Of a stretch of DNA of 39,214 nt, positions 1 through 37,825 are shown piece after piece. Source of the DNA: an uncultured bacterium (GTDB taxonomy: Bacteria; Patescibacteriota; Minisyncoccia; Phycocordibacterales; UBA9973); contig CAITQP010000003.1 in the NCBI GenBank assembly GCA_903894565.1, forward strand, positions 1 to 39,214. Reading direction: 5' to 3'. The notes below the pieces were generated by a model. That model saw only the letters and a list, made by a program, of their open reading frames with translations, ran no database searches and was not told the DNA's origin. The position numbers were made by a program, and so were the translations under genes. Numbering within the stretch: the first letter of the stretch is position 1; every line of letters begins with the position of its first letter.

Positions 1-71
1 CAAGGCACCAGCGTAAAATCCTGAAGGATTTTCGCCTCACGCTCGCGCCGCCCTGCTCCGCGAGTGCCTTG
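1..71. repeat. Dispersed structured (palindromic) repeat, copy 1; probably truncated by the window edge
   Basis: Aligns ungapped to 37729-37799 at 56/71 positions. Outer stem CAAGGCAC(1-8)/GTGCCTTG(64-71); inner hairpin AAAATCC-TGAA-GGATTTT. Confidence 0.85.
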
Positions 72-126
72 CAAAGTGCATTTTAAAAATTTTCTCCGAC
101 TTTTTGCCAAAAATACCCTTTGTATG

Positions 127-132
127 TATAAT
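127..132 (+). promoter_or_regulatory. Sigma70-type -10 box (TATAAT) 6 nt upstream of the guaA ATG
   Basis: Consensus hexamer followed by CATTTC-ATG(139); no Shine-Dalgarno. Confidence 0.6.
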
Positions 133-138
133 CATTTC

Positions 139-1665
139 ATGGATACAATTCTCATCTTAGATTTTGGAGGTCAGTCGTGCCATCTTATTTCCCGTCGTTT
201 GCGTGACTTTGGCGTCTACGCCGAAGTGCTTCCATCCGATTATTCTGCCAAGGAAATCATGGCTCGTCCCGAGGTAAAAGGAGTCATCCTTTCAGGGGGT
301 GCTCGTTCAGTCTATGAAAAGAATGCACCAGAATTCGACAAGGCCATCTTCGCTCTTGATATGCCACTTTTTGGTATTTGTTATGGTCACCAGCTTCTCG
401 CAAAACAGCTCGGAGGTACCGTTGAGAATGGTACCGTTGGCGAATATGGACAGCAGACACTCTCAGTCACCAAAAAGACAGGACTCTTTGCTGGCCTCGC
501 TTCAAAGGAAAAAATTTGGATGAACCACAAAGATGTTGTGACCAAGATGCCAGAGGGTTTCACTGTTATCGGCAAGACTTCACATTCAGCTATCGCTGCG
601 TACGCATCAAAGGACAACAAGCGCGTTGGCGTACAGTTCCATCCAGAAGTCAGTCATACTGATCATGGTACAGAAATGCTCAAGAACTTCGCCGTGACTA
701 TTTGTAAAATCAAACCGACATACACATCAGCAAATCTCCTCAAAGAAACAATCAAAGAAGCCAAAGATACAATGGGTAATGAACGCGCCGTCATTGGTCT
801 CTCAGGTGGAGTGGATTCGTCTGTAGCGGCTGCACTTGTCGCGCGCGCTATCGGTGAGAACCTCACTGCCGTATATGTCGATACTGGACTGATGCGTGAG
901 GGAGAGACTGACTATCTCCGCAAAGCATTCGGAGACAAGGGTCTCAAGCTCATCATTGTGGATGCTGCCAAAGAATACTTTAGCGCACTCAAAGGTGTGA
1001 CCGATCCTGAAACCAAGCGCAAGATTATCGGGACACTCTTTGTTCGTATTTTTGAACGCGAAGCAAAGAAGACGAAAGCACAGTGGCTCATTCAAGGTAC
1101 GATTTATTCTGATCGAATCGAGAGTGGACTTACAAAGCATTCGGCGAATATCAAAAGTCATCACAACGTTGGAGGCCTTCCAAAAGATTTGGGGCTCAAA
1201 CTCTACGAGCCGCTTCGCGATCTCTACAAGGACGAAGTTCGTACGCTTGCAAAGACGCTGAAGCTTCCAAAAGAAATCACCGATCGTCAGGTTTTCCCTG
1301 GTCCAGGTCTTGCGATTCGTATCATCGGTGAAGTGACTCCAGAGCGCGCAGCGATTGTACGCAAAGCTGGGGATATCATCGAGAGTGAGCTCATGCACAC
1401 GAAACACTGGAAAGATATTTGGATGAGTTTTGCCGTTTTTCTTCCTGTGCAATCCGTTGGAATTTCAGGTGATGAACGTTCGTACAAGCATCCACTCGTT
1501 CTTCGCATCGTCGAATCACGTGATGCGATGAGCGCAAACTTTGCCAAGCTTCCATACGAAATTCTTGAGACAATCTCTACTCGTCTTACAAACGAAATTA
1601 AAGAAATTAACCGTGTCGTGTACGACATCACAAACAAGCCACCAGCAACAATGGAGTGGGAGTAA
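139..1665 (+). CDS. guaA: GMP synthase (glutamine-hydrolysing)
   Basis: N-terminal ILILDFGGQ, GATase GICYGHQL and GVQFHPEV, PP-loop SGGVDSS, IKSHHNVGGLP, FPGPGLAIR, C-terminal KPPATMEWE. Start moved from 64 to ATG 139. Confidence 0.98.
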   Translation: MDTILILDFGGQSCHLISRRLRDFGVYAEVLPSDYSAKEIMARPEVKGVILSGGARSVYEKNAPEFDKAIFALDMPLFGICYGHQLLAKQLGGTVENGTVGEYGQQTLSVTKKTGLFAGLASKEKIWMNHKDVVTKMPEGFTVIGKTSHSAIAAYASKDNKRVGVQFHPEVSHTDHGTEMLKNFAVTICKIKPTYTSANLLKETIKEAKDTMGNERAVIGLSGGVDSSVAAALVARAIGENLTAVYVDTGLMREGETDYLRKAFGDKGLKLIIVDAAKEYFSALKGVTDPETKRKIIGTLFVRIFEREAKKTKAQWLIQGTIYSDRIESGLTKHSANIKSHHNVGGLPKDLGLKLYEPLRDLYKDEVRTLAKTLKLPKEITDRQVFPGPGLAIRIIGEVTPERAAIVRKAGDIIESELMHTKHWKDIWMSFAVFLPVQSVGISGDERSYKHPLVLRIVESRDAMSANFAKLPYEILETISTRLTNEIKEINRVVYDITNKPPATMEWE

Positions 1666-1674
1666 AAAATAATC

Positions 1675-3525
1675 ATGTTTTCATTTCGAAAGATATTTGG
1701 ATACGTCTGGCCACACATGCGAAAGCATGGGTGGCTTCTTTCGGGTCTATTGTTCATGTTTACACTTCGAATATCGAACGACATCATTCGTCCGCTGTTT
1801 TACAAAAAGATCATTGACACACTTTCTGTTGCTGGTGTTGATCATGGAGCGATCGCGCACCGTTTGTTTGTGCTTGTTGCCATAATCGTTATTTTGAACG
1901 GCTGCGCGGGGCTCCTCGGTCGAATTACGAAATATATGAATATTTCGTTCGAATTGAAAGTCATAGAGCGACTGCGTAATTTTGCATTTGAAAAAATAGA
2001 GAGTCATTCACCAACATTTTTTGCGAATACCTTCGCGGGAAGTTTGGTAACAAAAAGCCGTCGTTTTGTTGGTGCATTCGAAATGATGTTTGATATTTTT
2101 ATCTACAATTTTTGGAATGTACTCGTCGTGATTACGGGAGCATTGATTGTGTTGTTCCAACAATCATTTGTGATTGGAGGTATTTTATTTGGATGGATGA
2201 TTTTGTTCTTGGTGATTGTTACCTTCTTTGTTAAAAAGAAAATTAAATACGATCTCGAGGAAGCACGATATGATTCAAAGATCGGTGGGCGTTTGGCCGA
2301 TGTGTTTGGTAACACAATTGCCGTAAAAACATTTTCGGCTGGAAATCGTGAACGAGTATCGTTTGCGAAACTTGTAGCGCAGACGGCAGAAAAAAGCAGA
2401 ATTGCTTGGCTTTTTGGAAATAAAGTTGATGCTGTTCAGGCTGTCCTCGTCTTTTCTGCACAAGGTATTTTACTTTATACGATGATTCGTTTGTGGCTTG
2501 CAGGAGCAATCTCTACTGGTACTGTTGTATTAACACAGACATATATGGTGATTATTTTTGACCGTATGTGGGACCTCGGGAATTCACTTACGAAATTTAT
2601 GAAATCTGCAGCTGACATGCAGGAGATGGTAGATCTGTTTGAAGTACCGCTTGATATTGCTGATCCAAAAAATCCTGAGGAGCTTCGAATGCATACTGGA
2701 GTTGTTGAGTTCAATCATGTTTCATTTTCATATCCAAACAATCAGTCTGTTTTTTCAGATTTTGAATTACATATTCGTGCCGGTGAACGTATTGGGCTTG
2801 TTGGGCATTCTGGCGCAGGAAAATCAACCATAACAAAATTACTTTTGCGATTTACTGATGTTACAAAAGGCGTCGTTGCTATCGACGGCCAAGATATTCG
2901 AAATGTAACCCAGGACGATTTGCGTAGTGTTGTCTCGTACGTACCGCAAGAACCAGTTCTTTTTCATCGATCACTTCGAGAGAATATTGCGTATGGTAAA
3001 CCGGATGCTGCGCTCGAAGAAATCACAGAAGCAGCTCGTCGCGCACACGCCGATGAATTCATTGCAAACCTGGAACATGGTTACGACACGCTTGTCGGTG
3101 AACGTGGTGTAAAGCTCTCCGGAGGAGAGCGCCAACGTATCGCCATTGCTCGCGCGATTTTGAAAGATGCCCCCGTTCTTGTACTTGATGAAGCAACAAG
3201 TTCTCTTGATTCATATTCAGAAAACCTGATTCAGGAAGCATTCAACGAACTAATGAAAGGAAGAACAACGATCGTAATCGCCCACCGACTCTCTACGATT
3301 CAAAAGATGGATCGCATTATCGTATTGTCAGGTGGTAAGATCGTTGAGGAGGGAACACACAATGAATTGCTCGGTATCGTGGGAGGAGAATATAAACAGA
3401 TGTGGGATTTGCAGGCTGGAGGATTTATCGGAGGCCCTGTCGTGTTAGACGATGAAAATGAAAATCAAGGCGAATTAGATTTTGAAGTTAGGCGAATGAG
3501 CGAAAATAAAAATGAAAATCAATAA
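1675..3525 (+). CDS. ABC exporter, fused TMD-NBD half transporter (ABCB/MsbA-like)
   Basis: About 6 TM segments, then Walker A GHSGAGKS, Q-loop VPQE, signature LSGGERQR, Walker B VLDEATSSLD, H-switch IAHRLST. Confidence 0.95.
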   Translation: MFSFRKIFGYVWPHMRKHGWLLSGLLFMFTLRISNDIIRPLFYKKIIDTLSVAGVDHGAIAHRLFVLVAIIVILNGCAGLLGRITKYMNISFELKVIERLRNFAFEKIESHSPTFFANTFAGSLVTKSRRFVGAFEMMFDIFIYNFWNVLVVITGALIVLFQQSFVIGGILFGWMILFLVIVTFFVKKKIKYDLEEARYDSKIGGRLADVFGNTIAVKTFSAGNRERVSFAKLVAQTAEKSRIAWLFGNKVDAVQAVLVFSAQGILLYTMIRLWLAGAISTGTVVLTQTYMVIIFDRMWDLGNSLTKFMKSAADMQEMVDLFEVPLDIADPKNPEELRMHTGVVEFNHVSFSYPNNQSVFSDFELHIRAGERIGLVGHSGAGKSTITKLLLRFTDVTKGVVAIDGQDIRNVTQDDLRSVVSYVPQEPVLFHRSLRENIAYGKPDAALEEITEAARRAHADEFIANLEHGYDTLVGERGVKLSGGERQRIAIARAILKDAPVLVLDEATSSLDSYSENLIQEAFNELMKGRTTIVIAHRLSTIQKMDRIIVLSGGKIVEEGTHNELLGIVGGEYKQMWDLQAGGFIGGPVVLDDENENQGELDFEVRRMSENKNENQ

Positions 3526-5386
3526 CAATTATGTAGCCGTTACGAACCGTGACGTGATCTCTACCTACTGGCAGAGCCTCAAAAAGCGCGCGTGGTTTTT
3601 CTATGTGTCGATTGTCATGATTATACTCGCGTCGGTAATGGAACTTACGTATCCAATTTTTTACAAAAAATTCTTTGATGTGCTTACGGTGAGTAGCCCG
3701 AATCCTATCACTGCGAATAGTCTCGTACATATCATTTTGATTATTCTCGGAGCTCACATCGTTGCGTGGGTCGGTTGGCGTATTTCGACATTCGCTACGA
3801 TTCGGTATCAGGTAGAAACAATGTCGGATATTAAAACAAATGCTTTTGAATATATTGCGGGTCATTCGCAAACATTTTTTGCGAATACTTTTATTGGTTC
3901 GCTCGTTCAGCGTGTCAGTCGTGCTGCGAAAGCATTTGAAACGATTTTTGATAATTTAAGCTGGAATCTTATCCCACTTATTGTGCAGATCGTGGGGTAC
4001 ACAATCGTGCTGTCGATCGAAAAGCCGTTGTTTGCCGTACTGATCGTATCATGGGGAGTGCTATTTATCGCATTCAACTTTTTCTTTGCACGATATAAGA
4101 TGAAGTATGATGTTAAGAAGTCAGAAGCGGATTCACGTACGACGGGAGCGCTCGCGGATGCACTGACAAATCATACGACAATCAATCTTTTTACTGGATA
4201 TGATTTTGAAAATAGTCGGTTCGTTGCGATCTCAAATGATCAGGCAAAAATTACTTCTACCTCATGGAATCTTGGTTGGATCGTCGAGGCCATTCAATCG
4301 GCATTCATCATGGCGATTGAATTTTTGGTATTTTATTTTGGGATCAAATTGTGGAGAGATGGACAGATGTCGATGGGTACGTTTGTGCTCATTCAGGTCT
4401 ACGTCATTTCGCTCTCTGGTTCGCTCTGGAATTTTGGTAAAGTCATTCGTGGATTTTATGAAGCGTTTGCGGATGGAGTGGAGCTTGTTCAAATCTTGAA
4501 AACGCCACACGACATCGACGATGCGCCACAAGCAGGAACACTCACTATCGAAAATGGTTCAGTTGAATTCCGCGATGTTTGTTTTGAGTACGGTAATGGA
4601 CGCATGGTGCTTGATCACCTGAATATTCGAGTGAAGGCAGGAGAGCGCGTAGCGCTCGTGGGTTCAAGTGGTGCAGGCAAGACGACAGTGATGTCACTTT
4701 TGCTTCGATTCCACGATGTGACGAGTGGAGCTGTCTTGATTGACGGTGTTGATATTCGGACTGTTACACAAACAAGTTTACATCATGCGATTGCCATGGT
4801 TCCTCAGGACACCGTCCTTTTTCACCGAACACTTCGTGAGAATATTCGCTACGGCCGAATTGGCGCGAACGACGAAGAAGTTGAACGTGCAGCACATCTT
4901 GCGCATTGTACTGAATTTATCGGCCGACTTCCGCTCGGCTATGATACCTATGTTGGAGAACGTGGCGTGAAGCTTTCTGGTGGAGAGCGTCAGCGTGTCG
5001 CCATTGCTCGCGCAATTTTGAAACACGCGCCACTGCTTGTCCTTGATGAGGCTACGAGTTCACTTGATTCAGAATCTGAAGCACTTATTCAAGATGCGCT
5101 CGGCAAAGTCATGGAAGGACGCACGACTATCGTGATTGCACATCGTCTTTCAACGATTCGAAAAATGGATCGCATCATTGTGCTTGATAGCGGGCGAGTT
5201 GCCGAAGAGGGAACACACGATGAACTGATTCAAAATCCAAACAGTCATTATAAAAAACTCTGGGATTTGCAGGCGGGAGGATTTATGGGTGGTACGATAC
5301 GCAAAAATGAGCAAGAAGAGGAGGAGAAAATAGGGAATCTTGACGACGAAGAAGATGATGATGTAATCAAGCATCCTACTGTTTAA
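3512..5386 (+). CDS. ABC exporter, fused TMD-NBD half transporter (paralog of the upstream gene)
   Basis: GSSGAGKT, VPQD, LSGGERQR, VLDEATSSLD, IAHRLST. Overlaps the upstream gene by 14 nt; acidic C-terminal tail. Confidence 0.95.
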   Translation: MKINNNYVAVTNRDVISTYWQSLKKRAWFFYVSIVMIILASVMELTYPIFYKKFFDVLTVSSPNPITANSLVHIILIILGAHIVAWVGWRISTFATIRYQVETMSDIKTNAFEYIAGHSQTFFANTFIGSLVQRVSRAAKAFETIFDNLSWNLIPLIVQIVGYTIVLSIEKPLFAVLIVSWGVLFIAFNFFFARYKMKYDVKKSEADSRTTGALADALTNHTTINLFTGYDFENSRFVAISNDQAKITSTSWNLGWIVEAIQSAFIMAIEFLVFYFGIKLWRDGQMSMGTFVLIQVYVISLSGSLWNFGKVIRGFYEAFADGVELVQILKTPHDIDDAPQAGTLTIENGSVEFRDVCFEYGNGRMVLDHLNIRVKAGERVALVGSSGAGKTTVMSLLLRFHDVTSGAVLIDGVDIRTVTQTSLHHAIAMVPQDTVLFHRTLRENIRYGRIGANDEEVERAAHLAHCTEFIGRLPLGYDTYVGERGVKLSGGERQRVAIARAILKHAPLLVLDEATSSLDSESEALIQDALGKVMEGRTTIVIAHRLSTIRKMDRIIVLDSGRVAEEGTHDELIQNPNSHYKKLWDLQAGGFMGGTIRKNEQEEEEKIGNLDDEEDDDVIKHPTV

Positions 5387-5435
5387 AAGAGCCATTTTCG
5401 TATATACTAGCAGGCATTACTAACTCACATTTTAT

Positions 5436-6659
5436 ATGACTAATCCATTCGAAAACGCATTGATGCAGTTGAAGCGTGCCACAGACGTACAGGCCTTCCC
5501 AGAGGGCTTTATGAAGCAGATTTCAGTACCGAACCGTGAGGTTCGCATTTCTATTCCTGTTGTGATGGACGATGGCAGTACTCAGGTCTTTGAAGGGTAC
5601 CGCGTTGAGCACAACAATGCTCGCGGACCATACAAAGGCGGAATTCGTTACCACCATGACACTGATATTTATGAAGTGAAGGCGCTCGCTTTCTGGATGG
5701 CACTCAAATGTGCTGTCGCAAATATCCCGATGGGCGGTGGAAAAGGTGGAATCACTGTTGATCCAAAGAAACTCTCAAAGACTGAACTTGAAAAACTCTC
5801 ACGCGGATGGGCACGCGGAATGGCTGATATTCTTGGACCAAAGAAAGACGTCCCAGCTCCAGACGTAAATACGACTCCAGAAATCATGTCATGGATGAAT
5901 GATGAATTCATGAAAATCTCTGGTGATACAACTGGGGCAACATTTACTGGAAAGCCCCTCGACAAGGGAGGTTCAGAAGGTCGCGGTGCGGCTACTGGTC
6001 TCGGCGGATGGTATGTCTTTAGCGCGCTTCGTGAGAAATATAATGTTCAGCCAGGATCAACTGTCGTTATTCAAGGATTTGGAAACGTTGGAGGTCACGC
6101 TGCAAGTATTTTCTCTTCGAACGGATACAAAGTCATCGCAACATCTGACTCAAAGGGAGGTATCGTCAAAGAAGATGGTATCGATGTAAAGGCGCTTGAG
6201 GATTGGAAGAAGCAGAATGGAACACTCGCAGGATTCCCAGGATCACGCGTTGTTACAAACGCAGAACTCCTCGAACTTCCATGTGATATTTTGATTCCAA
6301 GTGCGCTTGAAAATCAGATCACTTTTGATAACGCGCCAAAGATCAAGGCCAAGTTTATTCTTGAACTTGCAAACGGACCAATCACCCCAGAAGCGGATGA
6401 GATCCTCTTTGATCGCGGAATTCCAGTTATTCCAGATATTCTTGCAAACTCAGGTGGTGTAACTGTTTCAACATTTGAATGGGAACAGAACATAAAGGGT
6501 GAGCATTGGACAGAAGTTGATGTGAACGCAAAATTGCTTGAAATTCTCAATCGTGAGTCAATCACTATTTATGAGAAATCACTTTCAGCAAAGACTGATA
6601 TGCGCCGTGCAGCCTTCATCGTTGCGCTTGAGCGCATCGCGAAGGAGATGGGGTACTAA
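5436..6659 (+). CDS. gdhA: Glu/Leu/Phe/Val dehydrogenase (glutamate dehydrogenase)
   Basis: RGPYKGGIRY, GGGKGG, DVPAPDVNT, FTGKP, GGSEGR, IQGFGNVG, ELANGP, PDILANSGGVTVS motifs. Confidence 0.95.
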   Translation: MTNPFENALMQLKRATDVQAFPEGFMKQISVPNREVRISIPVVMDDGSTQVFEGYRVEHNNARGPYKGGIRYHHDTDIYEVKALAFWMALKCAVANIPMGGGKGGITVDPKKLSKTELEKLSRGWARGMADILGPKKDVPAPDVNTTPEIMSWMNDEFMKISGDTTGATFTGKPLDKGGSEGRGAATGLGGWYVFSALREKYNVQPGSTVVIQGFGNVGGHAASIFSSNGYKVIATSDSKGGIVKEDGIDVKALEDWKKQNGTLAGFPGSRVVTNAELLELPCDILIPSALENQITFDNAPKIKAKFILELANGPITPEADEILFDRGIPVIPDILANSGGVTVSTFEWEQNIKGEHWTEVDVNAKLLEILNRESITIYEKSLSAKTDMRRAAFIVALERIAKEMGY

Positions 6660-6672
6660 TACGAAATGTGAG

Positions 6673-6710
6673 AAAATGCGCGGTCGCCCTTCGGGCGACC
6701 GCGCATTTTT
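6673..6710 (+). terminator. Intrinsic terminator after gdhA
   Basis: Perfect inverted repeat AAAATGCGCGGTCGCCC-TTC-GGGCGACCGCGCATTTT ending in a T-tract. Confidence 0.9.
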
Positions 6711-6765
6711 CATACCCACCCACTTACTTTCCCGATTTGAAAGCAAGGCGTATACTACATATACT

Positions 6766-7185
6766 ATGGAAAACCTACCAAAAGCATCCAAATGGCAGAT
6801 TATTAATCGTCATTATTACGGCAACGTAGTGCGAGGTATCTTTGTCCTTGTTGGACTCATGATGCTCGCTACGTTCCCATTCTTTAATGATCTCGTTCCT
6901 GTGCCGCTCTGGCTCTCAATTGGTATCATTGCTATGCTTGCCGTGTTTGGCGGGTTGCTCAATCCTGCACAGCGCTGGATACTCGTGGTGAATACTATTT
7001 TGCCGGTTGTCGGACTTATTGTTTTTCAGTACGAGGCTGCGTATGCATACGCACATATTCCTGTAACTGAGACACGTCGTGTTGCATTCTTTTGGGCCAA
7101 TGAGATCGTGTCGCTTTTGTTCTTCATCGCTACATATCTTGCCGTCAAAACTGCTCGTGGCCGTTTTGTCGAGGAGGTAGAATAG
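6766..7185 (+). CDS. Hypothetical membrane protein (~4 TM, 139 aa)
   Basis: Hydrophobic helices. Start taken as ATG 6766 (MENLPK), 9 nt after TATACT 6751-6756; the track's longer start overlaps gdhA and its terminator. Confidence 0.75.
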   Translation: MENLPKASKWQIINRHYYGNVVRGIFVLVGLMMLATFPFFNDLVPVPLWLSIGIIAMLAVFGGLLNPAQRWILVVNTILPVVGLIVFQYEAAYAYAHIPVTETRRVAFFWANEIVSLLFFIATYLAVKTARGRFVEEVE

Positions 7186-7211
7186 TCCTGCGTATGGTAT
7201 TCTGTTAAGGT

Positions 7212-8705: not shown

Positions 8706-8718
8706 TTAATTCAATCGA

Positions 8719-28410: not shown

Positions 28411-28980
28411 ATGGATACACAAACAACAATTACTCCTGTTACTAAGGGCGCAGGCTTCATGAAGTGGGCAGTTGTGGTCGCGATTGTGATTGTTTTGAAT
28501 CTTTTTTTCAATTATGCAATCTCGCTTGTTTACAAAGCACCAACGTGGGAAGAGTATATGCCGACCACACAAGTTGTTGAGACGATTACAAACAAGAGTG
28601 ATTGTTTGAGTGTTGGTGGCCAATGGACCGACTCAGATCCTCGTCTTCTCGACTCCACACCAACAAACACAAAGACTCCTGTTGTAACTGGGTACTGTGA
28701 TCCAAACTATACGAAACAACAGAATTTCAATTCTGCTCAAAAATCATACGATCGCACCGTATTTATTATTCTTGTTGTATTGGGTGTTGTATCTCTTGTC
28801 CTCGGCGCAATTCTCACCAATACGGTATTGCAACTTTCATTTTCCTGGGGTGGAGTTTTGTCTCTTGTTATTGCTTCGATGCGCTACTGGAGTGATGCAG
28901 ATAATGTGCTTAAAGTTATTATTCTCGCAGTTGCGCTTGGTGCCCTTATTTGGATTGCCGTCAAAAAATTAGCGAAATAA
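28411..28980 (+). CDS. Hypothetical membrane protein (4 TM) with an extracytoplasmic Cys pair
   Basis: TM1, loop with CLSVGGQW...GYC, then three TM segments; 6 nt upstream of leuS. Confidence 0.8.
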   Translation: MDTQTTITPVTKGAGFMKWAVVVAIVIVLNLFFNYAISLVYKAPTWEEYMPTTQVVETITNKSDCLSVGGQWTDSDPRLLDSTPTNTKTPVVTGYCDPNYTKQQNFNSAQKSYDRTVFIILVVLGVVSLVLGAILTNTVLQLSFSWGGVLSLVIASMRYWSDADNVLKVIILAVALGALIWIAVKKLAK

Positions 28981-28986
28981 AACTGT

Positions 28987-31608
28987 ATGAAAGCGTACGA
29001 TCATAAAAAAATAGAAAAGAAATGGCAGAAGACATGGCAGGAAAAGAAAACCTACCAAACACTGTCAGCGAAATCTGCCAAAGGAAAGAAACCATTCTAT
29101 GTGCTTGATATGTTTCCGTATCCGTCTGGTGCGGGATTGCATGTTGGACACCCACGTGGATATATCGGATCTGATGTGATCGCACGTAAAAAGCGCATGG
29201 AAGGATTCAATGTGTTGCACCCAATGGGATATGATGCGTTTGGACTTCCTGCGGAACAATACGCAATCGCAAACAAAATTCATCCACGCAAAGCGGTGCT
29301 TGATAACGTCAAAACGTTTGAACGACAATTGTCAGTTATTGGCTTTTCATTTGACTGGAATCGCACCGTCAATACAACTGACCCTGAGTATTACAAATGG
29401 ACACAATGGATTTTTCTCAAAATCTATAATTCGTGGTTTGACCTTTCAAAAAATAAGGCACGGCCAATAGAGGAACTTGTTGCTGTTTTTGCAAAAAAAG
29501 GAAGTGAAGGGGCCTCCGCAGCGCATCATTCAAAGCGTGCGTTTTCAGCGAGTGAATGGCGTGCAATGAGTGCACTCGATCAGCAAACAGTACTCATGGA
29601 ATATCGCCTCGCCTACGAAGGATATTCTGAGGTCAATTGGTGTCCAGAAATGGGCACAGTACTCGCAAACGATGAGATTGTTGATGGTCCCAATGGTCCG
29701 GTCTCAGAACGCGGTAGTTATCCTGTTGAAAAGCGTTCAATGCGTCAGTGGTTTATGCGTATTACTGCGTATGGTGACCGTTTGATTGAAGATCTCGACG
29801 GACTGTCGTGGCCAGAGCATATCAAGGAGATTCAGCGTAACTGGATTGGTAGGTCAGAAGGACTTTTGTTCCGCGCGCCAGTAAAAGATAGTGATATCGT
29901 GATTGAAACTTTCTCTGCTCATTTCGAAGCATGCCACGCAGATACATTTGTCGCGATCGCTCCAGACCACCCGCTTCTCTCGACGTTGCTCGAAGGTGTC
30001 ACAAACAAAAGTGAAGTGCTTGCGCAAGCAAAAGCGATAACTCAGAAACGAGAAGCACTTGGTGACAAATATAAAGAAGTCGAAGGAGTTTTTACTGGCC
30101 GATATATTGTTGACCCACTGGGTAATGGTGATTTGCCAATTTGGATTGCGAGTTTCGCACTTAAAGATTATGGTACCGGCATCGTAAAATGTTCTGCTCA
30201 CGATGAGCGTGATTTCGCGTTTGCAAAAAAATACGATATTCCACTCAAAGCAGTGATGTTTCCTCGCGATGAAGCGCTTCGTGCACAGGTTCAAAATTTT
30301 GAAATATGTTTTTCTGATTCAGGAACGGGTGTGTTGACTGAGCCGAAAGAATTTAAAGGACGCGTCGCGCACGAAGTGCGCGACGCTGTTGCCGAGTATG
30401 CGGTAAAGCATGGTTTCGCAAAACAAAAAGTGAGTTACAAAATCCGCGATGCCGTCTTTGCACGTCAACGTTACTGGGGAGAACCAATTCCACTTTCAAA
30501 AGATACGGAAGGAATTCTTCATGAAGTGTCAGAAAAGAAATTGCCACTCGAGCTTCCAAATGTAAAAAGCTATGAACCATCGGGTACTGGGGAGAGTCCA
30601 CTTGCGAGTGTTCCCACATGGACCCGGGCTGGATATGAGACCAATACGATGCCAGGTTGGGCGGGAAGTTCATGGTATTTCTTGCGCTACGTTGACCCAA
30701 AAAACAAAAAGGCCTTTGCTGGCGAAGCTGAACTTGATTACTGGTTTAATAAAAAACATGTCGGAGGCGTCGATGTGTATGTTGGGGGTGCGGAGCACGC
30801 CACCGGCCATTTACTGTATTCGCGTTTCTGGCACAAGGTTCTCTTTGATTACGGATTGGTTCCAACAAAGGAGCCTTTCCAGTTGCTACGCAATCAGGGA
30901 ATTATCCTCGCGTCTGACGGACGCAAAATGAGTAAGCGTTGGGGAAACGTTGTTAATCCCGACGAAATTGTTGGCACGTACGGTGCTGACACGCTTCGCT
31001 TGTACGAAATGTTTATGGGGCCGTTTGATGCCAGTCTTCCTTGGAGTACGGAGAGTATTATTGGTTCGAGACGCTTTATCGAACGAGTATGGCGTTTCGC
31101 TGAAAAAATAGAGACTGCTCAAAATGGAAAACAAAACCAAAGCGAACCTTCGTATGAGCAGGCGCTTCATAAAGCAATCAAAAAAGTCACTGAAGATATT
31201 GAAAACTTTGGTTTCAATACCGCGGTGTCGGCCATGATGATTTGTTTAAACGAAATGGAAAAGGCCGACTATGTGAGTGTTGCTGACTACAAAAAATTCT
31301 TGCAATTGCTTGCGCCTTTTGCTCCGCACGTTGCAGAAGAATTATGGGAATTATTTGGTGAAAAGAAATCTATTCATGTATCTGGATGGCCATCATACGA
31401 TGAATCAAAGCTTGTTTCTGATACGGTGACGATTATGGTTCAGGTGAATAGCAAGAATCGTGCAGAGTTACAGATTTCTCGAGACATGTCGAGCGATGCA
31501 GTGAAAGCACTCGCTCTTGCTTCAGAAAAGGTTCAAACAGCGCTTGCAGGTATGATTCCAAAGAAAATAATTTACGTACCTGGCCGCTTGGTAAATATTG
31601 TTGCATAG
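28987..31608 (+). CDS. leuS: Leucine--tRNA ligase
   Basis: LDMFPYPSGAGLHVGH, MGYDAFGLPAE, QRNWIGRSEG, RQRYWGEPIP, GGAEHA..HLLY, KMSKRWGN, C-terminal VQVN. Confidence 0.98.
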   Translation: MKAYDHKKIEKKWQKTWQEKKTYQTLSAKSAKGKKPFYVLDMFPYPSGAGLHVGHPRGYIGSDVIARKKRMEGFNVLHPMGYDAFGLPAEQYAIANKIHPRKAVLDNVKTFERQLSVIGFSFDWNRTVNTTDPEYYKWTQWIFLKIYNSWFDLSKNKARPIEELVAVFAKKGSEGASAAHHSKRAFSASEWRAMSALDQQTVLMEYRLAYEGYSEVNWCPEMGTVLANDEIVDGPNGPVSERGSYPVEKRSMRQWFMRITAYGDRLIEDLDGLSWPEHIKEIQRNWIGRSEGLLFRAPVKDSDIVIETFSAHFEACHADTFVAIAPDHPLLSTLLEGVTNKSEVLAQAKAITQKREALGDKYKEVEGVFTGRYIVDPLGNGDLPIWIASFALKDYGTGIVKCSAHDERDFAFAKKYDIPLKAVMFPRDEALRAQVQNFEICFSDSGTGVLTEPKEFKGRVAHEVRDAVAEYAVKHGFAKQKVSYKIRDAVFARQRYWGEPIPLSKDTEGILHEVSEKKLPLELPNVKSYEPSGTGESPLASVPTWTRAGYETNTMPGWAGSSWYFLRYVDPKNKKAFAGEAELDYWFNKKHVGGVDVYVGGAEHATGHLLYSRFWHKVLFDYGLVPTKEPFQLLRNQGIILASDGRKMSKRWGNVVNPDEIVGTYGADTLRLYEMFMGPFDASLPWSTESIIGSRRFIERVWRFAEKIETAQNGKQNQSEPSYEQALHKAIKKVTEDIENFGFNTAVSAMMICLNEMEKADYVSVADYKKFLQLLAPFAPHVAEELWELFGEKKSIHVSGWPSYDESKLVSDTVTIMVQVNSKNRAELQISRDMSSDAVKALALASEKVQTALAGMIPKKIIYVPGRLVNIVA

Positions 31609-31612
31609 TTGA

Positions 31613-31641
31613 TTGCTCCGTCTGGTTCCGTGGGATATACT
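31613..31641 (+). promoter_or_regulatory. Sigma70 promoter TTGCTC-N17-TATACT
   Basis: 17-nt spacer; -10 is 11 nt before ATG 31653. Confidence 0.55.
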
Positions 31642-31652
31642 GGGTAGATATT

Positions 31653-33989
31653 ATGCTCAAAAAGAACTTCCGTCTCTGTGACAATATCGCTCGATTTTCG
31701 TTGCTCGCAACTGTGTTGCTTACGATAATCGCCTTTGTTCCTGGGGGCTTTGTATCCATAGTACTCTTAAAAGGATATGTACTGGTAGTTGGAGTCTCGG
31801 TTGCGTTTGTCGCCTGGCTTATGGGACGACTGATGGAAGGGGCCGTTACGTTTTCACGTTCGTGGATACTTATTTCGACCGGAGTATTACTTGTCTCGAT
31901 TCTAGCATCAACCTTTTTTTCGAGTACACCATATTTGTCGTTGTTTGGTGAGCAGCTTGATCAAGGAGCATTCGTACCATTCGCTTTTATGTGTGTCGGT
32001 TTGTTCCTCGCTTCTCAATTGTTTCAGGATAAAAAATCTCTTTCTTATTTCTTTTCGTCAGCTTATGTTTTGTATGGTGTCATTGCTCTGTATCAGCTCG
32101 CGCATTTGTTTTTTGCGCGCGCACTTTCGTTCGGTATGTTTACAGCGAATGTCTCAACACCGCTTGGTTTGTGGAGTGACTTTGCATATCTCTCAGGTGC
32201 GATGCTTATTGGAGCAGTGATTGTGCATGAATTCTTTCATTTACCCAAAATAATCCGATCGCTCATGTTTAGTGCTGGGGTACTTGCACTTTTTTTCGTT
32301 GCGACTACAAATATTTTACTTGTATGGATGTTGGTCGGTCTTTCGATGTTATTGATACTCGTCTACCGCCTTCTTTTTAGTGAAGAAACCGATGGTTCAC
32401 GTTTTCCAATCGTCTCATTTCTTCTTACTCTCGGGGCACTTTTCTTTAGTATTACGAACGCAAGTTTTGGGGGAAGACTCGCAAGCTTACTGCATGCGTC
32501 ATATCTTGGTGTTGATCCAAGTTTTTCAGTTACAGTCCATGTTGCATACGAATCAATAAAAGCGCACCTTATTTTTGGAGCGGGCCCCAATCGATTTTTT
32601 CATGAATGGATTGCATATCGTCCGTTGTCAGTGAACGCGAACATGTTATGGAATAGTATATTTTCATTCGGTTCGAGTTTTCTTTTGACGATTACTACGC
32701 TCGCAGGTATTTTGGGTGTATTGAGCGGTCTATTTTTTGTAGGATCATTTTTCTACGAAGGTTGGAACAATCTTTTTCGACAGAGTTTTCGTACTCAAAA
32801 TGAGCGTATACACCCAGGTATTTTTGCGACTTTTGTGCTGACACTGTATTTCTTTCTTATTATCTTGTTTGCTTCACCAGGAACGGGAATTACCTTCCTT
32901 TCCTTTTTCTGGATTGGACTATTCATTGCAGTATTGAGTAGCGCTGGATTGATTGAGAAGCATACATTTGAATTCGCACAAAAAAAATTCTTCGGCGTAA
33001 TTGCAATTTGTGTCGTCGTTCTCGGGGTAACAGTTTCTTTTTTGAGTAGTATCGGAGCAACAAAGCGTCTTATTGTAGCTGTACATTATGCGAACGGTGT
33101 TCATTCTGCGAATGCAGGGAATGTTGCCGAAGCTGATCTTCAGTTTATGAGAGCAATTACCACCGTTGATCTTCCAAGTATTGAACGTGATCGTGTGCAG
33201 CTTGCAGTAGATACAATACAAGCTGAGTTTACGAATGTTCCATCAAATACAGCGCAACTTTCAGTTGATTCAAGAAACACGATTCAAAACGCGATCAAGG
33301 TTGGAACGGCGGCATCACTTGCTGCTGTGTCACTCGACCCGAGCGATGTACAAAATTATCTTGTGTATGGAGATTTTATGAGATCACTTTCTCCGTTGAA
33401 AATTCAGGAGTCTTTTAATAATGCACGAGATGCATACTTGAAAGCAGTGAATGTCGCGCCTAATTACCCAGTGTCATATTACGATCTCGCGCGATTGTAC
33501 GCTGGTAGCGGAGATTCAAAAAATGCAACGGTCTATGCTACCCAAGCACTCGCTATTAAGCCAAATTACGAAGAGGTGTTTTACCTCGAGGCACAACTGG
33601 CGCTTGCACAGTCTGACGTTGATACCGCGGTAACTATTCTTAAAAAAGCTATTTCAACTGACCCAAGTAATTCCCAGATATATTCAGAGCTTGGACAAGT
33701 GCAATATAAAGCAGGCAGATATACTGATGCCGTTGCTTCATTTGGAAGTGCTACGGCTCTCGATTCGAGCGATACGAATTCTTGGTATTATCTCGCTCAG
33801 GCTTTTGCCAAGACGGGGGACCAGAAGGAAGCAAGTATGATTTTGACGGCACTTCATGCTCGATATCCAGATAATAAAGATATTTCAAATGCTTTGCTTT
33901 CATTAACAACGCCTACGGTAGCACCGACCGTGCTCGATACATCAAAGATGAAAAAATCGTCGACGGTAATTCCAAAAGCAAAGAAATAA
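31653..33989 (+). CDS. O-antigen-ligase-like (Wzy_C) polytopic membrane protein with C-terminal TPR repeats
   Basis: About 12 TM segments, loop motif IFGAGPNRF, TPR-like helices (AYLKAVNVAPNYP..YYDLARLY; AISTDPSN..YSELG). Confidence 0.75.
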   Translation: MLKKNFRLCDNIARFSLLATVLLTIIAFVPGGFVSIVLLKGYVLVVGVSVAFVAWLMGRLMEGAVTFSRSWILISTGVLLVSILASTFFSSTPYLSLFGEQLDQGAFVPFAFMCVGLFLASQLFQDKKSLSYFFSSAYVLYGVIALYQLAHLFFARALSFGMFTANVSTPLGLWSDFAYLSGAMLIGAVIVHEFFHLPKIIRSLMFSAGVLALFFVATTNILLVWMLVGLSMLLILVYRLLFSEETDGSRFPIVSFLLTLGALFFSITNASFGGRLASLLHASYLGVDPSFSVTVHVAYESIKAHLIFGAGPNRFFHEWIAYRPLSVNANMLWNSIFSFGSSFLLTITTLAGILGVLSGLFFVGSFFYEGWNNLFRQSFRTQNERIHPGIFATFVLTLYFFLIILFASPGTGITFLSFFWIGLFIAVLSSAGLIEKHTFEFAQKKFFGVIAICVVVLGVTVSFLSSIGATKRLIVAVHYANGVHSANAGNVAEADLQFMRAITTVDLPSIERDRVQLAVDTIQAEFTNVPSNTAQLSVDSRNTIQNAIKVGTAASLAAVSLDPSDVQNYLVYGDFMRSLSPLKIQESFNNARDAYLKAVNVAPNYPVSYYDLARLYAGSGDSKNATVYATQALAIKPNYEEVFYLEAQLALAQSDVDTAVTILKKAISTDPSNSQIYSELGQVQYKAGRYTDAVASFGSATALDSSDTNSWYYLAQAFAKTGDQKEASMILTALHARYPDNKDISNALLSLTTPTVAPTVLDTSKMKKSSTVIPKAKK

Positions 33990-35672
33990 ATGATACGTAA
34001 GTTACTCGACATGGTGAACCGCCGATTCCAAGGAATGCACGAAGCAGCGATTCTGCTCGGAGTGTTTTCTCTCGTGTCGCAACTTATCGGTTTATTCCGT
34101 GATCGGATGCTTGCGCATATGATTGGCCCCGGACCCAAACTCGATGTGTACTATGCTGCGTTTCAGATTCCCAATTTTATTTTTATTTCAATCGCTTCGC
34201 TTGCATCAATTACCGTATTGATGCCGTTTCTTGTTGAACGAATGGATGGTAACGGGCAAGAGTCAGCACGCAGATTTTTTAGTGACGTGCTCTCTGGTTT
34301 TTTCCTTTTGCTTGTGACCGTCTCAGTAGGTGTATTTTTCTTGATGCCGTGGCTCTCGCGTATTATTGCTCCCGGATTTTCCGCGGACCAACTCCATGAG
34401 CTTGTTGCTGTCAGTCGCATCATGCTCCTGTCACCAATATTCATGGGTCTTTCAAACATGCTCGGTACCGTGACTCAACTCTTGCGAAAATTTTTTGTAT
34501 TTTCACTTTCTCCAATTTTTTACAACGTAGGTATTATTCTTGGAATTGTCTTTTTGTATCCAAGGTACGGTGTCGCAGGCCTTGCTATTGGAGTCGTGTT
34601 TGGTGCATTGCTTCATTTACTTATACAAATCCCTACACTTTTTTCTGCTGGCTTTGCCCCTACGTTTACGGCAAGACTTTCGCGTTCAACACTTCGACAA
34701 GTTGTTGCGCTCTCGCTCCCACGTACGCTCGGAATCTCGATGAATAGTCTCGCGCTGCTTGCTATCGTAGCGATTGGCTCAACACTTACGTCAGGTTCTA
34801 TTTCTATTTTTAATTTTGCACTCAATCTTGAAACGACTCCGGTTGGTATTATTGGTATTTCCTATGCAGTGGCGTCGTTCCCGATTTTGTCCGAAGCATT
34901 CGCACGAGGGGAGAAAGAGAAGTGGCAGAGCTGTATTCTTTCGGCCACACGCCAGATTATTTTTTGGTCACTCCCACTCACTGCCTTACTCATCGTGCTT
35001 CGTGCACAGATCGTTCGAGTAACGCTTGGCACAGGGGCGTTCAGTTGGGCAGATACCAAGCTCACGGCAGCGTGTTTTGCTCTTTTTACAATCGGGCTCA
35101 TTGCACAAAATATGGTTCTCGTTTCTACCCGCGCATTTTACGCCGCACATAATACAAAGACTCCACTCTACATCAATGCAGTTTGTTCCATCGGGATTAT
35201 CTGTCTTGCGTTCTTTTTGAAATATGAATTTTTGAATATTCCAATGTTCCGTTATTTTATTGAATCACTTTTGCGTGTTGGTGACGTTCCTGGAACGTCG
35301 GTGCTCATGCTTCCGCTTGCGTATTCGCTCGGTACGCTCGTGAACGCGCTCTTGCACTGGGTAGATTTGCGCAAGCGTTATCTCGACACGACTGGCACGC
35401 TTCCGCGTGCCACGTTTGAGGCCATCGGCGCCTCATTCGTGACAGGTGCGGTCGCCTACGGCTCCCTCAACGTTCTCTCAAACGTCTTTTCTATGCACAC
35501 ATTCTGGGGCGTGCTCATGCAAGGGGGCCTCGCGTGTCTCGCAGGGACCATAGCGGGCATCATGGTACTTGCGCTTCTCAAGAGTGAATCACTTTTTGAA
35601 ATCTGGTCTGCTTTTCGCAAAAAATTCTGGCGTGTTGACCTCGTCACTTCCGAGGAGTTATCAACAAAATAG
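33990..35672 (+). CDS. murJ: Lipid II flippase MurJ (MviN)
   Basis: SQLIGLFRD, DVYYAAFQIPN, SPIFYNVGII, PVGIIGIS..VASFP, RAFYA..NTKTP; abuts the upstream stop (TAAATG). Confidence 0.93.
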   Translation: MIRKLLDMVNRRFQGMHEAAILLGVFSLVSQLIGLFRDRMLAHMIGPGPKLDVYYAAFQIPNFIFISIASLASITVLMPFLVERMDGNGQESARRFFSDVLSGFFLLLVTVSVGVFFLMPWLSRIIAPGFSADQLHELVAVSRIMLLSPIFMGLSNMLGTVTQLLRKFFVFSLSPIFYNVGIILGIVFLYPRYGVAGLAIGVVFGALLHLLIQIPTLFSAGFAPTFTARLSRSTLRQVVALSLPRTLGISMNSLALLAIVAIGSTLTSGSISIFNFALNLETTPVGIIGISYAVASFPILSEAFARGEKEKWQSCILSATRQIIFWSLPLTALLIVLRAQIVRVTLGTGAFSWADTKLTAACFALFTIGLIAQNMVLVSTRAFYAAHNTKTPLYINAVCSIGIICLAFFLKYEFLNIPMFRYFIESLLRVGDVPGTSVLMLPLAYSLGTLVNALLHWVDLRKRYLDTTGTLPRATFEAIGASFVTGAVAYGSLNVLSNVFSMHTFWGVLMQGGLACLAGTIAGIMVLALLKSESLFEIWSAFRKKFWRVDLVTSEELSTK

Positions 35673-35704
35673 GGTTTGTTGACATTGTGGCCATACAAGG
35701 TAGA

Positions 35705-35842
35705 TTTGATTCAAATAAAAAGAGATGGAAAAATTATTTCGGGCCACACATGGCCACCCAAAACCTCGAGGTCAGCATGCTGTTCGAGGATGATTAAATA
35801 AATATTGTATAACATTTAAAAAAAGGATCTTCGGATCCTTTT
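35705..35842 (+). ncRNA. Candidate small RNA or small transcription unit between murJ and lepA
   Basis: TTGACA(35679)-N16-TAGATT upstream, two hairpins (GGCCA-CACA-TGGCC; CCTCGA...TCGAGG) and a downstream terminator. No family recognised. Confidence 0.3.
35821..35842. terminator. Intrinsic terminator with cUUCGg loop
   Basis: AAAAGGATC-TTCG-GATCCTTTT. Confidence 0.8.
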
Positions 35843-35882
35843 GTAGTTTTTCAGGCATTTTTCTGTTAGTATGGCGAAGTAC

Positions 35883-37703
35883 ATGGATTTACAGCATATT
35901 CGCAATTTCAGCATTATCGCCCATATTGATCACGGCAAGTCGACCCTTGCCGACCGCATGCTTGAGGTCACCGGGACTATTGAGGCGCGCAAAATGCGCG
36001 ATCAGGTGCTCGACAATATGGAGCTTGAACGTGAGCGTGGCATTACCATCAAAATGCAGCCAGTTCGAATGCAACACAAAGTTGGGAACGACAGCTACCA
36101 GCTCAACCTTATTGATACGCCAGGACATATCGACTTCTCCTATGAAGTCTCCCGTGCGCTCAAGGCCGTAGAAGGCTCAATCCTGCTCGTAGACTCGACT
36201 CAAGGAGTCCAAGCTCAAACACTTACCACACTCGATGCTGCACGCAAGGAGGGGCTTGTCATCGTGCCTGTTGTGTCCAAGATTGATTCGCCACTCGCGC
36301 GTCCCGAAGAAGTGAAGCTTGAAATCGCTACACTGCTTGATATTGACCCTGACGAAGTACTTGAAGTTTCAGGGCGTACAGGTCAAGGGGTTGAGGCTTT
36401 GCTCAAGGCTGTGATTGAGCGTATTCCGCCACCAGCGCCGGCTGCTATTGTGAGTGGTTCAGGGCTCAAAGCGCTCGTGTTTGATTTTAAATATGACGAT
36501 CACAAAGGAGTGATCGTGTACGTGCGAGTATTTGAAGGCTCAGTCAAACGTCACGACCGTTTGCTCTTTTCGATTGCAGGTGAGAAATTTATCGCACTTG
36601 AAGTCGGAGTCTTCATGCCGTTTGAAGAAGCTCGCGATACATTGTCTGCGGGAGAAATTGGCTACATTGTGACGGGTGTTAAACAGCCAGGTATCGCAAG
36701 TGTGGGAGATACAATCACGACAGAAAAGAATCCTCTCCCTGCGCTCGCAGGATATGACAATCCACGACCGGTAGTGTGGGCTTCGATCTATCCAGAAAGT
36801 CAGGATGATTTTCCTGCGCTTCGCACCGCACTCGGACGACTCAAATTGTCTGACTCAGCATTTACGTTTGAAGAAGAATCAAGTGGCGCACTTGGTCGCG
36901 GATTTCGTGCAGGATTCCTTGGAATGTTGCACCTTGAAATCATCACCGAGCGTTTACGCCGTGAATATCGTTTGGAACTCATCGTAACGACTCCATCGAT
37001 CACGTATATGGTGACGAAGCGCAGTGGCAAAGTCGAGACTGTGTATTCACCACACCTTTTCCCAAACGACGGAGATATTGTGTCTGTTGATGAGCCATGG
37101 GCGAACGTACGTATCATTACACCAGAGCGATACATCGGAATTCTTATGCCGTTTTTGTATGGACATGAGGCGGAGATTGGTACAACTGAAACATTCGGAG
37201 AAGGACGTTCTGCTGTGAGTATTGTGATGCCGCTTCGTGAAATGATGCGTGGATTTTTTGATGAGCTCAAGAGTCTGACGAGTGGATATGCTTCAATCAC
37301 GTATTCGCTCGCGGGGCTTCGCCCCGCGAGCGTAACCCGCATGGACATCATCCTCGCTGATGAAGTCGTCCCAGCATTCACTCGCGTCATCGCCAAGCGT
37401 CGTGCGCAAGACGAAGCGGATGAATCAACAGAAAAATTGCAAACCATTTTGCCACGACAACAATTTGAAATGAAAGTGCAAGCAGTCGCTCTCGGAAAAA
37501 TTCTTTCATCCAAAACAATCAAAGCATTCCGTAAAGACGTGCTCATGCATGGATCAAAAGTTGTGGGTGGAGGAGACGTATCTCGCAAAAAGAAATTGCT
37601 CGAAAAACAAAAGAAAGGAAAGGCTCGCATGCGCGATGCTGCAAAAGTAAACATTCCTCACGACGTGTTCCTCAAGATGATGCAGAGGGGAGACAACGCG
37701 TAA
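35883..37703 (+). CDS. lepA: Translation elongation factor 4
   Basis: IRNFSIIAHIDHGKSTLADR, LERERGITIK, LIDTPGHIDF, GFLGMLHLEI, GGDVSRKKKLLEKQKKGK. Alternative start at 35871. Confidence 0.98.
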   Translation: MDLQHIRNFSIIAHIDHGKSTLADRMLEVTGTIEARKMRDQVLDNMELERERGITIKMQPVRMQHKVGNDSYQLNLIDTPGHIDFSYEVSRALKAVEGSILLVDSTQGVQAQTLTTLDAARKEGLVIVPVVSKIDSPLARPEEVKLEIATLLDIDPDEVLEVSGRTGQGVEALLKAVIERIPPPAPAAIVSGSGLKALVFDFKYDDHKGVIVYVRVFEGSVKRHDRLLFSIAGEKFIALEVGVFMPFEEARDTLSAGEIGYIVTGVKQPGIASVGDTITTEKNPLPALAGYDNPRPVVWASIYPESQDDFPALRTALGRLKLSDSAFTFEEESSGALGRGFRAGFLGMLHLEIITERLRREYRLELIVTTPSITYMVTKRSGKVETVYSPHLFPNDGDIVSVDEPWANVRIITPERYIGILMPFLYGHEAEIGTTETFGEGRSAVSIVMPLREMMRGFFDELKSLTSGYASITYSLAGLRPASVTRMDIILADEVVPAFTRVIAKRRAQDEADESTEKLQTILPRQQFEMKVQAVALGKILSSKTIKAFRKDVLMHGSKVVGGGDVSRKKKLLEKQKKGKARMRDAAKVNIPHDVFLKMMQRGDNA

Positions 37704-37825
37704 GGCGGGCGCATACAAAAAACCTTTTCAGAGTACCGGCGTAAAATCCCGAAGGATTTTCGCCTCCCTCTCGCGCCGTCGCGCTCTGAGAGTACTCTGA
37801 AAAGGTTTTTTGCTTGCGGCCCGCC
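37704..37825. repeat. Dispersed structured repeat, copy 2, with long terminal inverted repeats; may also act as a bidirectional terminator
   Basis: Perfect 21-bp IR (37716-37736/37792-37812) extended by GGCGGGC/GCCCGCC; the core is homologous to 1-71. Confidence 0.85.

Follow-up and report, generated by a model that had tools for sequence, protein, structure and literature searches.

Does a conserved, covarying structure that recurs through a small bacterial genome mark a functional RNA, a binding site for a protein, or a mobile piece of DNA? The question is raised by a 39,214-nt contig (CAITQP010000003.1 of assembly GCA_903894565.1; hereafter the window) from an uncultured member of the Patescibacteriota, in which two intergenic copies of a 71-nt sequence lie at positions 1–71 and 37729–37799. 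The window is the whole of contig C3 in a 16-contig assembly of 921,656 bp and ~44.5% G+C. This genome is referred to below as G000, a sister species as G001, and a more distant species as G014, with contigs and individual loci cited by C and L numbers. The analysis described here makes it probable that the sequence is a DNA repeat resembling repetitive extragenic palindromic (REP) sequences and MITEs (miniature transposable elements with inverted repeats), one that has no transposase, sits in the tips of terminator-type hairpins, and is shaped by template switching during replication.

Two copies of a foldable unit

An initial annotation, made from the letters of the window, aligned the two copies without gaps (56 of 71 positions identical), read three compensatory pairs of the outer stem (3/69, 4/68, and 6/66) straight from the sequence, and predicted for both an outer stem around two hairpins. 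All of this was confirmed, and two occurrences of the 28-nt core pattern were counted in the window, where 100 shuffles give an expectation of 0.00. The perfect 21-bp outer inverted repeat described for copy 2 is also present, pairing 37716–37736 with 37792–37812, and it reaches 37707–37821 when up to three mismatches are allowed. Folded as single-stranded DNA, 37707–37821 has a predicted energy of −43.2 kcal/mol on the plus strand and −42.5 kcal/mol on the minus strand (z of −9.5 and −9.6), with none of 200 shuffles folding as well.

Copy 1 abuts the start of the contig, and it had been predicted that the missing bases upstream of position 1 would be the reverse complement of those downstream of the copy. 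Contig C5 bore this out: its 3′ end matches window positions 1–50 exactly, carries the left host arm of copy 1, and beyond the overlap continues as the reverse complement of window positions 64–100. The result is a perfect 37-bp arm (100% over 37 nt, copy 1 at 64–100 versus C5 at 107242–107206), of which the right half lies at 64–100 on the plus strand of the window.

A family at the tips of copy-specific hairpins

As the initial annotation had supposed, the two copies belong to a dispersed structured family and are not a chance pair. A profile of the core gave 18 nhmmer hits in G000 at E ≤ 8e-15, representing 16 distinct copies; 14 of the hits are complete and internal, and four are cut by contig ends. 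The cut hits pair up, the end of C5 with the start of C3 and the reverse of the C5 start with the start of C4, and the overlaps between these ends would join C5 to C3 and the reverse complement of C5 to C4. The four contig ends inside the core fall at window 1–50, C5:107235-107284, C5:1-59, and C4:1-57. DNA contigs from four sequencing runs likewise break at the core, with no joints seen. A core-only covariance model added one weak, divergent match on C14 (31 bits).

Each complete copy forms the tip of a long palindrome that is near-perfect and specific to that copy, with fold energies from −83 to −147 kcal/mol and arms that are unrelated from locus to locus. A scan of G000 found 75 inverted repeats with arms of at least 20 nt, 11 of which hold the core between arms of 27–48 nt; many of the others are plain hairpins with loops of 0–13 nt, and at least two further families with a conserved apex are present. 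The 71-nt unit itself consists of an 8–9-bp terminal inverted repeat flanking an asymmetric centre of ~52 nt, which is predicted to fold as a three-way (Y) junction that joins an A/T-rich hairpin, in which one T is bulged, to a short GC hairpin. The inner stem formed by the 8–9-bp repeat is semi-conserved across copies and itself covaries.

The genomic setting of the family is distinctive. By crude calls of open reading frames, eight of the 16 copies lie between convergent genes, seven between co-directional genes, and one between divergent genes, and 15 adjoin the 3′ end of a gene. A run of at least four T residues, 5–15 nt outside the unit and with an A run as its counterpart in the opposite arm, is found in 10 of the 14 complete copies, the remaining four having the inner CTTTT only. 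On sequence, this succession of A run, hairpin, and T run has the geometry of a putative bidirectional intrinsic terminator. The orientation of the core relative to neighbouring genes is mixed (three sense and four antisense in the co-directional settings), and there is no bias with respect to the replication strand, orientation agreeing with local GC skew in six of the 16 copies and opposing it in 10. No copy in G000 is adjacent to a tRNA gene, the nearest being 871 bp away.

Covariation and strand symmetry

RNAalifold, applied to 15 copies, returned 37 pairs, 23 of them with compensatory changes and almost none with one-sided changes. A larger alignment was built from 72 cores of G000, G001, G014, and 14 other genomes of the order, and was scored for a specified structure. 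In it 91.9% of cells are paired, versus 33–52% (at most 52.3%) when the partners are slid by one to three columns; changes on both sides occur in 24 of 26 pairs, and none of 500 shuffles reaches the observed values.

The initial annotation had seen a hint that the minus strand is the structured one, which the base pairs do not uphold. In hairpin 1 there are 0 G.T pairs and 0 mismatches in 497 cells (A.C likewise 0), while the G.T/A.C counts in the other four helices are 25/26, 10/10, 2/2, and 4/2. Since G.T pairs are as frequent as A.C pairs, neither strand is favoured, and the pairing is strictly Watson–Crick; the two strands of the copy 2 palindrome also fold alike, as noted above. The covariation is thus real, and it reflects hairpin pairing equally on both strands rather than pointing to a strand-specific RNA gene. 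In the outer stem it consists for the most part of host hairpin sequence that is specific to the locus and that a DNA-level process keeps complementary, and so it is no proof of selection on an RNA helix.

Some of the apparent invariance of the core must be read with care. The rows of the 72-core alignment were picked by a pattern that demands CGTC as the loop of hairpin 2 and either A or T ahead of hairpin 1, and the constancy of that loop and of the A/T position is therefore partly by construction. Among loci from relatives, 36 of 60 pass this pattern; of the 24 that do not, 23 have the same architecture with other hairpin-2 loops and one belongs to a GC-rich family described below. The bulged T before the A/T-rich stem, as read by eye, is kept in 19 of these 23.

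Comparison with related species

G001, whose flanking sequences are ~84% identical to those of G000, has 16 copies, 14 of which are syntenic with copies in G000. In six of the 14 the core is inverted relative to its flanks, and in eight it keeps the same orientation. At C11:74118 a mismatch in the inner arm has moved along with the core, and the imperfections of the arms there are too many to let an assembler mistake one orientation for the other; at least this flip is therefore real. Elsewhere the arms are perfect over 30–48 bp, which leaves some risk of assembly error and only some loci immune to it. Across 12 ortholog pairs, identity is 95.6% in the core, 72% in the arms, and 84% in the mostly coding flanks. 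In the inner 32 columns of the arm alignments, 63 substitution columns have a mirror change in the opposite arm versus 45 that do not, and seven indel columns do versus four that do not. The positional ortholog is also the nearest G001 core in eight of 14 cases, indicating that most copies have been retained at the positions in which they were inherited; five pairs give the appearance of a swap or a conversion.

In one G001 locus (L036), the right arm repeats in inverted form the final codons and the stop codon of the gene upstream, an arrangement that G000 lacks, and this palindrome has grown by copying one of its flanks. In another G001 locus (L038) the unit is present, whereas G000 carries at C1:10825-10892 the same palindrome with a 2-nt loop, an arm of 33, and no unit. 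The difference between the two is exactly the 71-nt unit, with a 5-nt direct repeat, AAAGT, at both borders, although at this single clean site the border repeat arises from the palindromic context anyway and could equally have mediated a deletion. A presence/absence site of this kind defines the repeat as a 71-nt unit with its own 8–9-bp inverted repeat, the long arms being those of a host hairpin.

The two copies confined to G000 were not accompanied by clean empty sites in G001. The copy shared between C5 and C4 has a different upstream neighbour in G001, and the copy at C7:64571 sits in a G000-specific segment of 931 bp that includes a TauE-like gene. That segment (C7:64522-65452; L164 922–1852) comprises the capped hairpin together with a gene for a TauE/SafE-like membrane protein of 260 aa, and in G001, which lacks it, the ftsE and prfB flanks lie 7 nt apart.

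G014 is more distant (flanks ~70% identical) and has 19 copies. None of the 18 loci fetched from it maps to a site of the family in G000, both flanks having been mapped for eight of the 18; at some intergenic sites that the two genomes share, G000 has a plain terminator or another apex family. Site occupancy thus turns over on the time scale that separates the two species. One such site falls in the window, where an ordinary GC-rich terminator hairpin at 6670–6715 (stem of ~17 bp, TTCG loop, A run, and T run) occupies the place of a capped hairpin in G014 (L060). A sub-type specific to G014, with nine or ten nearly identical cores, occurs at different G014 loci (the second copy in L048, L050, L051, L055–L057, and L059–L061), and their near-identity suggests a recent burst in that species.

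Distribution in the order

The core-only model detected the family in 73 of the 150 other genomes that were sampled evenly across the order (74 of 151 when G000 is included), at 1–31 copies each, and in four of 150 genomes in a phylum-wide sample. Several other genera of the order have a sub-type that lies 45–65 nt from tRNA genes (Gln, Leu, Ser, and Trp), at L149 1448–1700, L148 1374–1640, L151 1456–1797, and L152 1413–1640 and 2917–3133. In this sub-type the right arm is a direct duplicate of the 3′ end of the tRNA gene and the left arm is an inverted copy, as if the palindrome had been built on an integration scar. Finally, in a locus from a further genome (L028 1–2244; G039:C5), a copy at 1089–1186 falls within a 23S rRNA gene region interrupted by matches to group I introns, and 5S rRNA follows.

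Searches for a partner enzyme or a known family

One option put forward in the initial annotation was a REP- or MITE-like element recognised as single-stranded DNA by a HUH/Y1 enzyme encoded elsewhere. As a DNA repeat this description is the best fit; the partner enzyme, however, was not found. The Y1_Tnp domain (PF01797, which covers RAYT and IS200 TnpA proteins) has 0 matches in G000, G001, and G014, each of which carries 16–19 copies of the repeat, G000 and G001 both being 100% complete. Among 41 relatives, Y1 domains occur in 17 and the repeat in 25; both are found in 10, the repeat only in 15, Y1 only in seven, and neither in nine, and hence there is no association. IS110 and TnpB proteins gave 0 matches in G000 and G001, the transposase search covering these two families and Y1_Tnp. 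Among the five genomes tested IS110 occurs in G014 alone, where three of the IS110-type transposases are on small contigs. All five also have large serine recombinases and Xer-type tyrosine recombinases, with no link to the repeat seen.

The initial annotation did not recognise the family. Rfam 15 gave 0 matches in the window at gathering thresholds, and at E ≤ 5 the 12 loci searched drew only miRNA-precursor models, that is, generic long-hairpin models, all of them far below their cut-offs. A literature search limited to one library of papers found no description of the family. Hammerhead, twister, and other small ribozymes were ruled out as candidates by the lack of an Rfam hit together with the lack of strand specificity. 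Membership of the CGTC-tagged REPs was also considered for the CGTC loop of hairpin 2, and it was ruled out on anatomy.

A mobile or a functional structure?

Taken as a whole, these observations are best accommodated by the reading introduced above, a REP/MITE-like DNA repeat without a transposase, which we hold to be the probable one. The long arms belong to the locus and not to the repeat, and under this reading they would change by the switching of templates during replication or by copying from one arm to the other. With help from the resemblance between its tip sequences and those of ordinary terminators, this process could also move the unit into new hairpin tips without any transposase, and such tips would be tolerated as sites because the hairpin and its T run are kept. 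Excerpts of PMC8794818 give as signatures of template switching the creation and perfecting of stems, the extension of stems, and the inversion of loops, and excerpts of PMC8604942 describe the homogenisation of arms and the inversion of spacers at inverted repeats. The corresponding patterns are seen here as mirrored substitutions and indels, inversion of the spacer, and extension of a stem from its flank (L036). Three observations place the DNA-level reading above a role in RNA or in protein binding: the core is free to face either way, the family is patchily distributed, and in one genome the same site holds a plain hairpin.

Several points weigh against this reading. Conservation is far higher in the core than in the mostly coding flanks (95.6% versus 84%), a difference for which template switching around a passenger gives no account; a passive passenger should decay, and some constraint or conversion must then act on the core. 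The unpaired bulged T and the hairpin-1 loop T-G-N-N are conserved across genera, and conserved unpaired bases of this kind suggest recognition by some factor. Were folding required of both RNA strands, for example in a bidirectional terminator flanked by convergent genes, strict Watson–Crick pairing would be expected too, and the symmetry would thus fit a role at the RNA level as well. Moreover, the flip calls come from short-read assemblies, which could give a wrong orientation wherever perfect arms exceed the word size of the assembler. The clean presence/absence site is a single one, and its polarity is not set by the 13 other members of the genus, which carry unrelated hairpins there. Finally, template switching is itself deduced from patterns rather than from direct observation.

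A bolder form of this idea, which we offer as a speculative possibility and would not bet on, is that the Y-shaped cap is a transposase-independent mobile DNA structure in its own right. Its conserved three-way junction might stall or redirect the replisome, or bind a conserved host factor through the bulged T and the loops, and the cap might in this way build and perfect its own arms, flip, and copy itself into other terminator-hairpin tips by template switching. Were this true, it would constitute a new class of selfish or domesticated element, spread by DNA shape with no need of an enzyme of its own, in about half the genera of a Patescibacteria order.

It is also conceivable that the cap is a functional RNA module that lies within a transcribed terminator hairpin and acts in the RNA, in either orientation, through improved termination, 3′-end protection, or the binding of a protein; either orientation would serve, since the two strands fold alike and transcription reaches most of the sites from both directions. 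The positions of the copies agree with such a role, given that 15 of 16 abut a gene 3′ end (eight between convergent genes) and 10 of 14 have T runs after the hairpin, as does a core more conserved than the flanking genes. The equal folding of both strands, with strict Watson–Crick pairing, would likewise fit a helix needed on both RNA strands, yet the conserved loops and bulge differ by strand, and copies are nonetheless found in three sense and four antisense settings and flipped in six of 14 cases. Together with a patchy spread (73 of 150 genomes of the order, 1–31 copies), the turnover of sites, the plain hairpin that serves at the same site on C1 of G000, and the lack of an Rfam match, this makes the RNA module unlikely. 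Gyrase, IHF, and Pol I bind REP and BIME elements, and a structure-specific protein with a host role could similarly recognise an extruded or single-stranded Y through its bulged T and loops, the conservation then reflecting binding. This would explain why unpaired nucleotides are conserved while stems vary, and it is compatible with a core better conserved than the neighbouring genes, a pairing constraint that is equal on both strands, and the spread of the family across the order. No candidate protein was identified, however, the repeat is absent from half of the sampled genomes of the order and ranges from 1 to 31 copies in the others, and the invariance of the loops stems partly from the choice of rows, hairpin-2 loops varying in 23 other loci; we consider a protein-bound structure of this kind distinctly unlikely.

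The substrates of Y1 transposases are hairpins with a bulged base and conserved loops, which the present unit resembles, and mobilisation as single-stranded DNA by a HUH/Y1 transposase (RAYT or IS200/IS605 TnpA), in the manner of a REP/REPIN- or PATE-like element, would suit its extragenic location at gene 3′ ends and the occurrence of Y1_Tnp genes in 17 of 41 relatives. Such mobilisation is nevertheless very improbable. The three genomes with 16–19 copies each have 0 Y1_Tnp matches, the overlap among relatives is poor (10 with both, 15 with the repeat only, seven with Y1 only, nine with neither), and orientation shows no GC-skew bias (6 vs 10). The anatomy is moreover the reverse of that of a REPIN, with a conserved centre and variable arms, and CGTC stands in a loop rather than serving as a terminal tag. 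As for a self-cleaving ribozyme or another strand-specific small RNA gene, the other option of the initial annotation, a three-way junction with strong covariation is what one would hope to see. Against this option stand the missing Rfam family, the absence of strand asymmetry (G.T equal to A.C, strands that fold equally, 0 G.U pairs in the 497 cells of hairpin 1), and the mixed orientation with six of 14 syntenic copies inverted, and we regard it as extremely improbable. A DNA repeat carried in hairpin tips and remodelled by template switching is accordingly the reading that we retain.

Layout of the window and other capped hairpins

In the window, both copies have the core in plus orientation. 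Copy 1 (1–71; nhmmer E 7.5e-21, 80.1 bits with the core covariance model) has an outer stem of 8 bp that pairs 1–8 with 64–71. In its predicted fold, hairpin 1 (10–36, plus strand) is made up of a 4-bp GC stem, the bulged T, a 7-bp A/T-rich stem, and a TGAA loop, and a 3-bp junction helix (40–62, plus strand) encloses hairpin 2, which is here a weakened variant common to copy 1 and the C13 copy. Its ortholog in G001 (L031) has the core inverted. The gene downstream is guaA, encoding GMP synthase, at 139–1665 on the plus strand (NF000848, 689 bits).

Copy 2 (37729–37799; nhmmer E 9e-22, 90.1 bits) likewise has an 8-bp outer stem, which pairs 37729–37736 with 37792–37799. Hairpin 1 (37738–37764, plus strand) is predicted to have a GC stem, the bulged T, a 7-bp A/T-rich stem, and a CGAA loop, and the predicted 3-bp junction helix (CTC/GAG; 37768–37790, plus strand) encloses a hairpin 2 with a 4-bp GC stem and a CGTC loop. 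The whole palindrome, host arms and unit together, spans 37707–37821, with an A run on the left and a run of six T residues on the right, and is terminator-like on both strands. It begins 4 nt past the stop codon of lepA, encoding elongation factor 4 (35871–37703, plus strand; TIGR01393, 706 bits), and its ortholog in G001 (L035) has the same orientation. Just past copy 2, at 37840–37920 on the minus strand, a short open frame read by eye would encode a hydrophobic peptide of ~26 aa.

Two other families of capped hairpins were noted in G000. The second family has a GC-rich apex of ~65 nt (37 nt in the C7 copy), folding as an outer stem around two hairpins, that caps long copy-specific palindromes in both orientations; its copies are at C11:139431-139553, C4:7132-7275, C4:8852-8991, C6:14091-14227, C7:6087-6207, C9:19962-20106, C9:41026-41140, and C9:59601-59743, and a locus of genome G003 (L144) has an apex of the same GC-rich type. 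The third family has arms of 27–46 bp that end in an A run and CACGG, around a conserved 13-nt loop that is found in both orientations. It occurs at C12:38291-38369, C4:20675-20765, C5:43128-43224, and C6:42328-42432, with a variant at C5:29386-29452.

Significance

The family offers a caution for RNA discovery, in that textbook covariation (24 of 26 pairs) surrounds a DNA palindrome that favours neither strand and is inverted between species; in genomes with frequent template switching, covariation alone is no proof of an RNA gene. It is also large and old: of 150 other genomes sampled in the order, 73 carry it, at up to 31 copies. Its core is more conserved than neighbouring housekeeping genes, yet no transposase or RNA role fits, and what recognises or preserves it is an intriguing question. 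Moreover, the family provides a natural system for learning how long perfect palindromes arise, extend, invert, and are tolerated in minimal genomes. A more practical consequence is that the repeat breaks assemblies, four contig ends of G000 falling within the core.

Comparison with known systems

Bacterial repeats of the MITE type whose transcripts form hairpins include the Correia/NEMIS, ERIC, RUP, and BOX elements and the Rickettsia palindromic elements. Like these, the present repeat falls near a size of ~70–150 bp, has short, if semi-conserved, terminal inverted repeats, is intergenic and non-coding, and often lies where it would be co-transcribed at the ends of genes. Unlike them, it has no parent insertion sequence among the Y1, IS110, and TnpB families searched and no clear target-site duplication, its unit is always at the exact tip of a pre-existing long palindrome, and it flips in place.

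As described in excerpts of PMC3733652, a REP is a single imperfect palindrome of 20–40 bp, one end of which bears a GTAG or CGTC tag that is left unpaired, and the CGTC-tagged REPs are defined by a terminal unpaired tag, one 8–9-bp stem that starts with A-T pairs, and a CCA tail. The same excerpts and those of PMC3337134 cover the GTAG- and CGTC-tagged super-families and the REPINs with their RAYT transposases. The present family shares with REP/BIME and REPIN sequences their small size, extragenic and multi-copy nature, capacity to form hairpins, and location mostly downstream of genes, between convergent or co-directional open reading frames, and it shares with the CGTC REPs the lack of a known dedicated transposase. 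It differs from the single stem-loop of REPs, present in tens to hundreds of copies, in having 71 nt, two hairpins within an outer stem, and 16–17 copies, and its CGTC is the loop of hairpin 2, swapped for other loops in 23 loci of relatives. REPINs, as the same excerpts present them, have conserved arms and a variable centre, whereas here the centre is conserved and Y-shaped and the arms are locus-specific; unlike the REPIN/RAYT system, moreover, G000 has no RAYT gene.

The closest parallel in process is with template-switch mutation at inverted repeats, or quasipalindrome correction, for which excerpts of PMC8794818 and PMC8604942 describe perfect stems, multi-base compensatory changes, stem extension, and inversion of the loop or spacer, all of which have counterparts in this family. 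Those excerpts deal with a mutational process only, whereas in the present case the process would operate around a conserved, dispersed, order-wide module, and at a striking frequency, with flips at six of 14 sites where flank identity is ~84%. Finally, the capped hairpins resemble predicted bidirectional intrinsic (Rho-independent) terminators in having an A run, a hairpin, and a T run at gene 3′ ends and in being palindromic through the A/T tracts; unlike ordinary intrinsic terminators, with their loops of 3–8 nt, they have arms of 27–48 bp and carry a structured insert of 52 nt at the tip.

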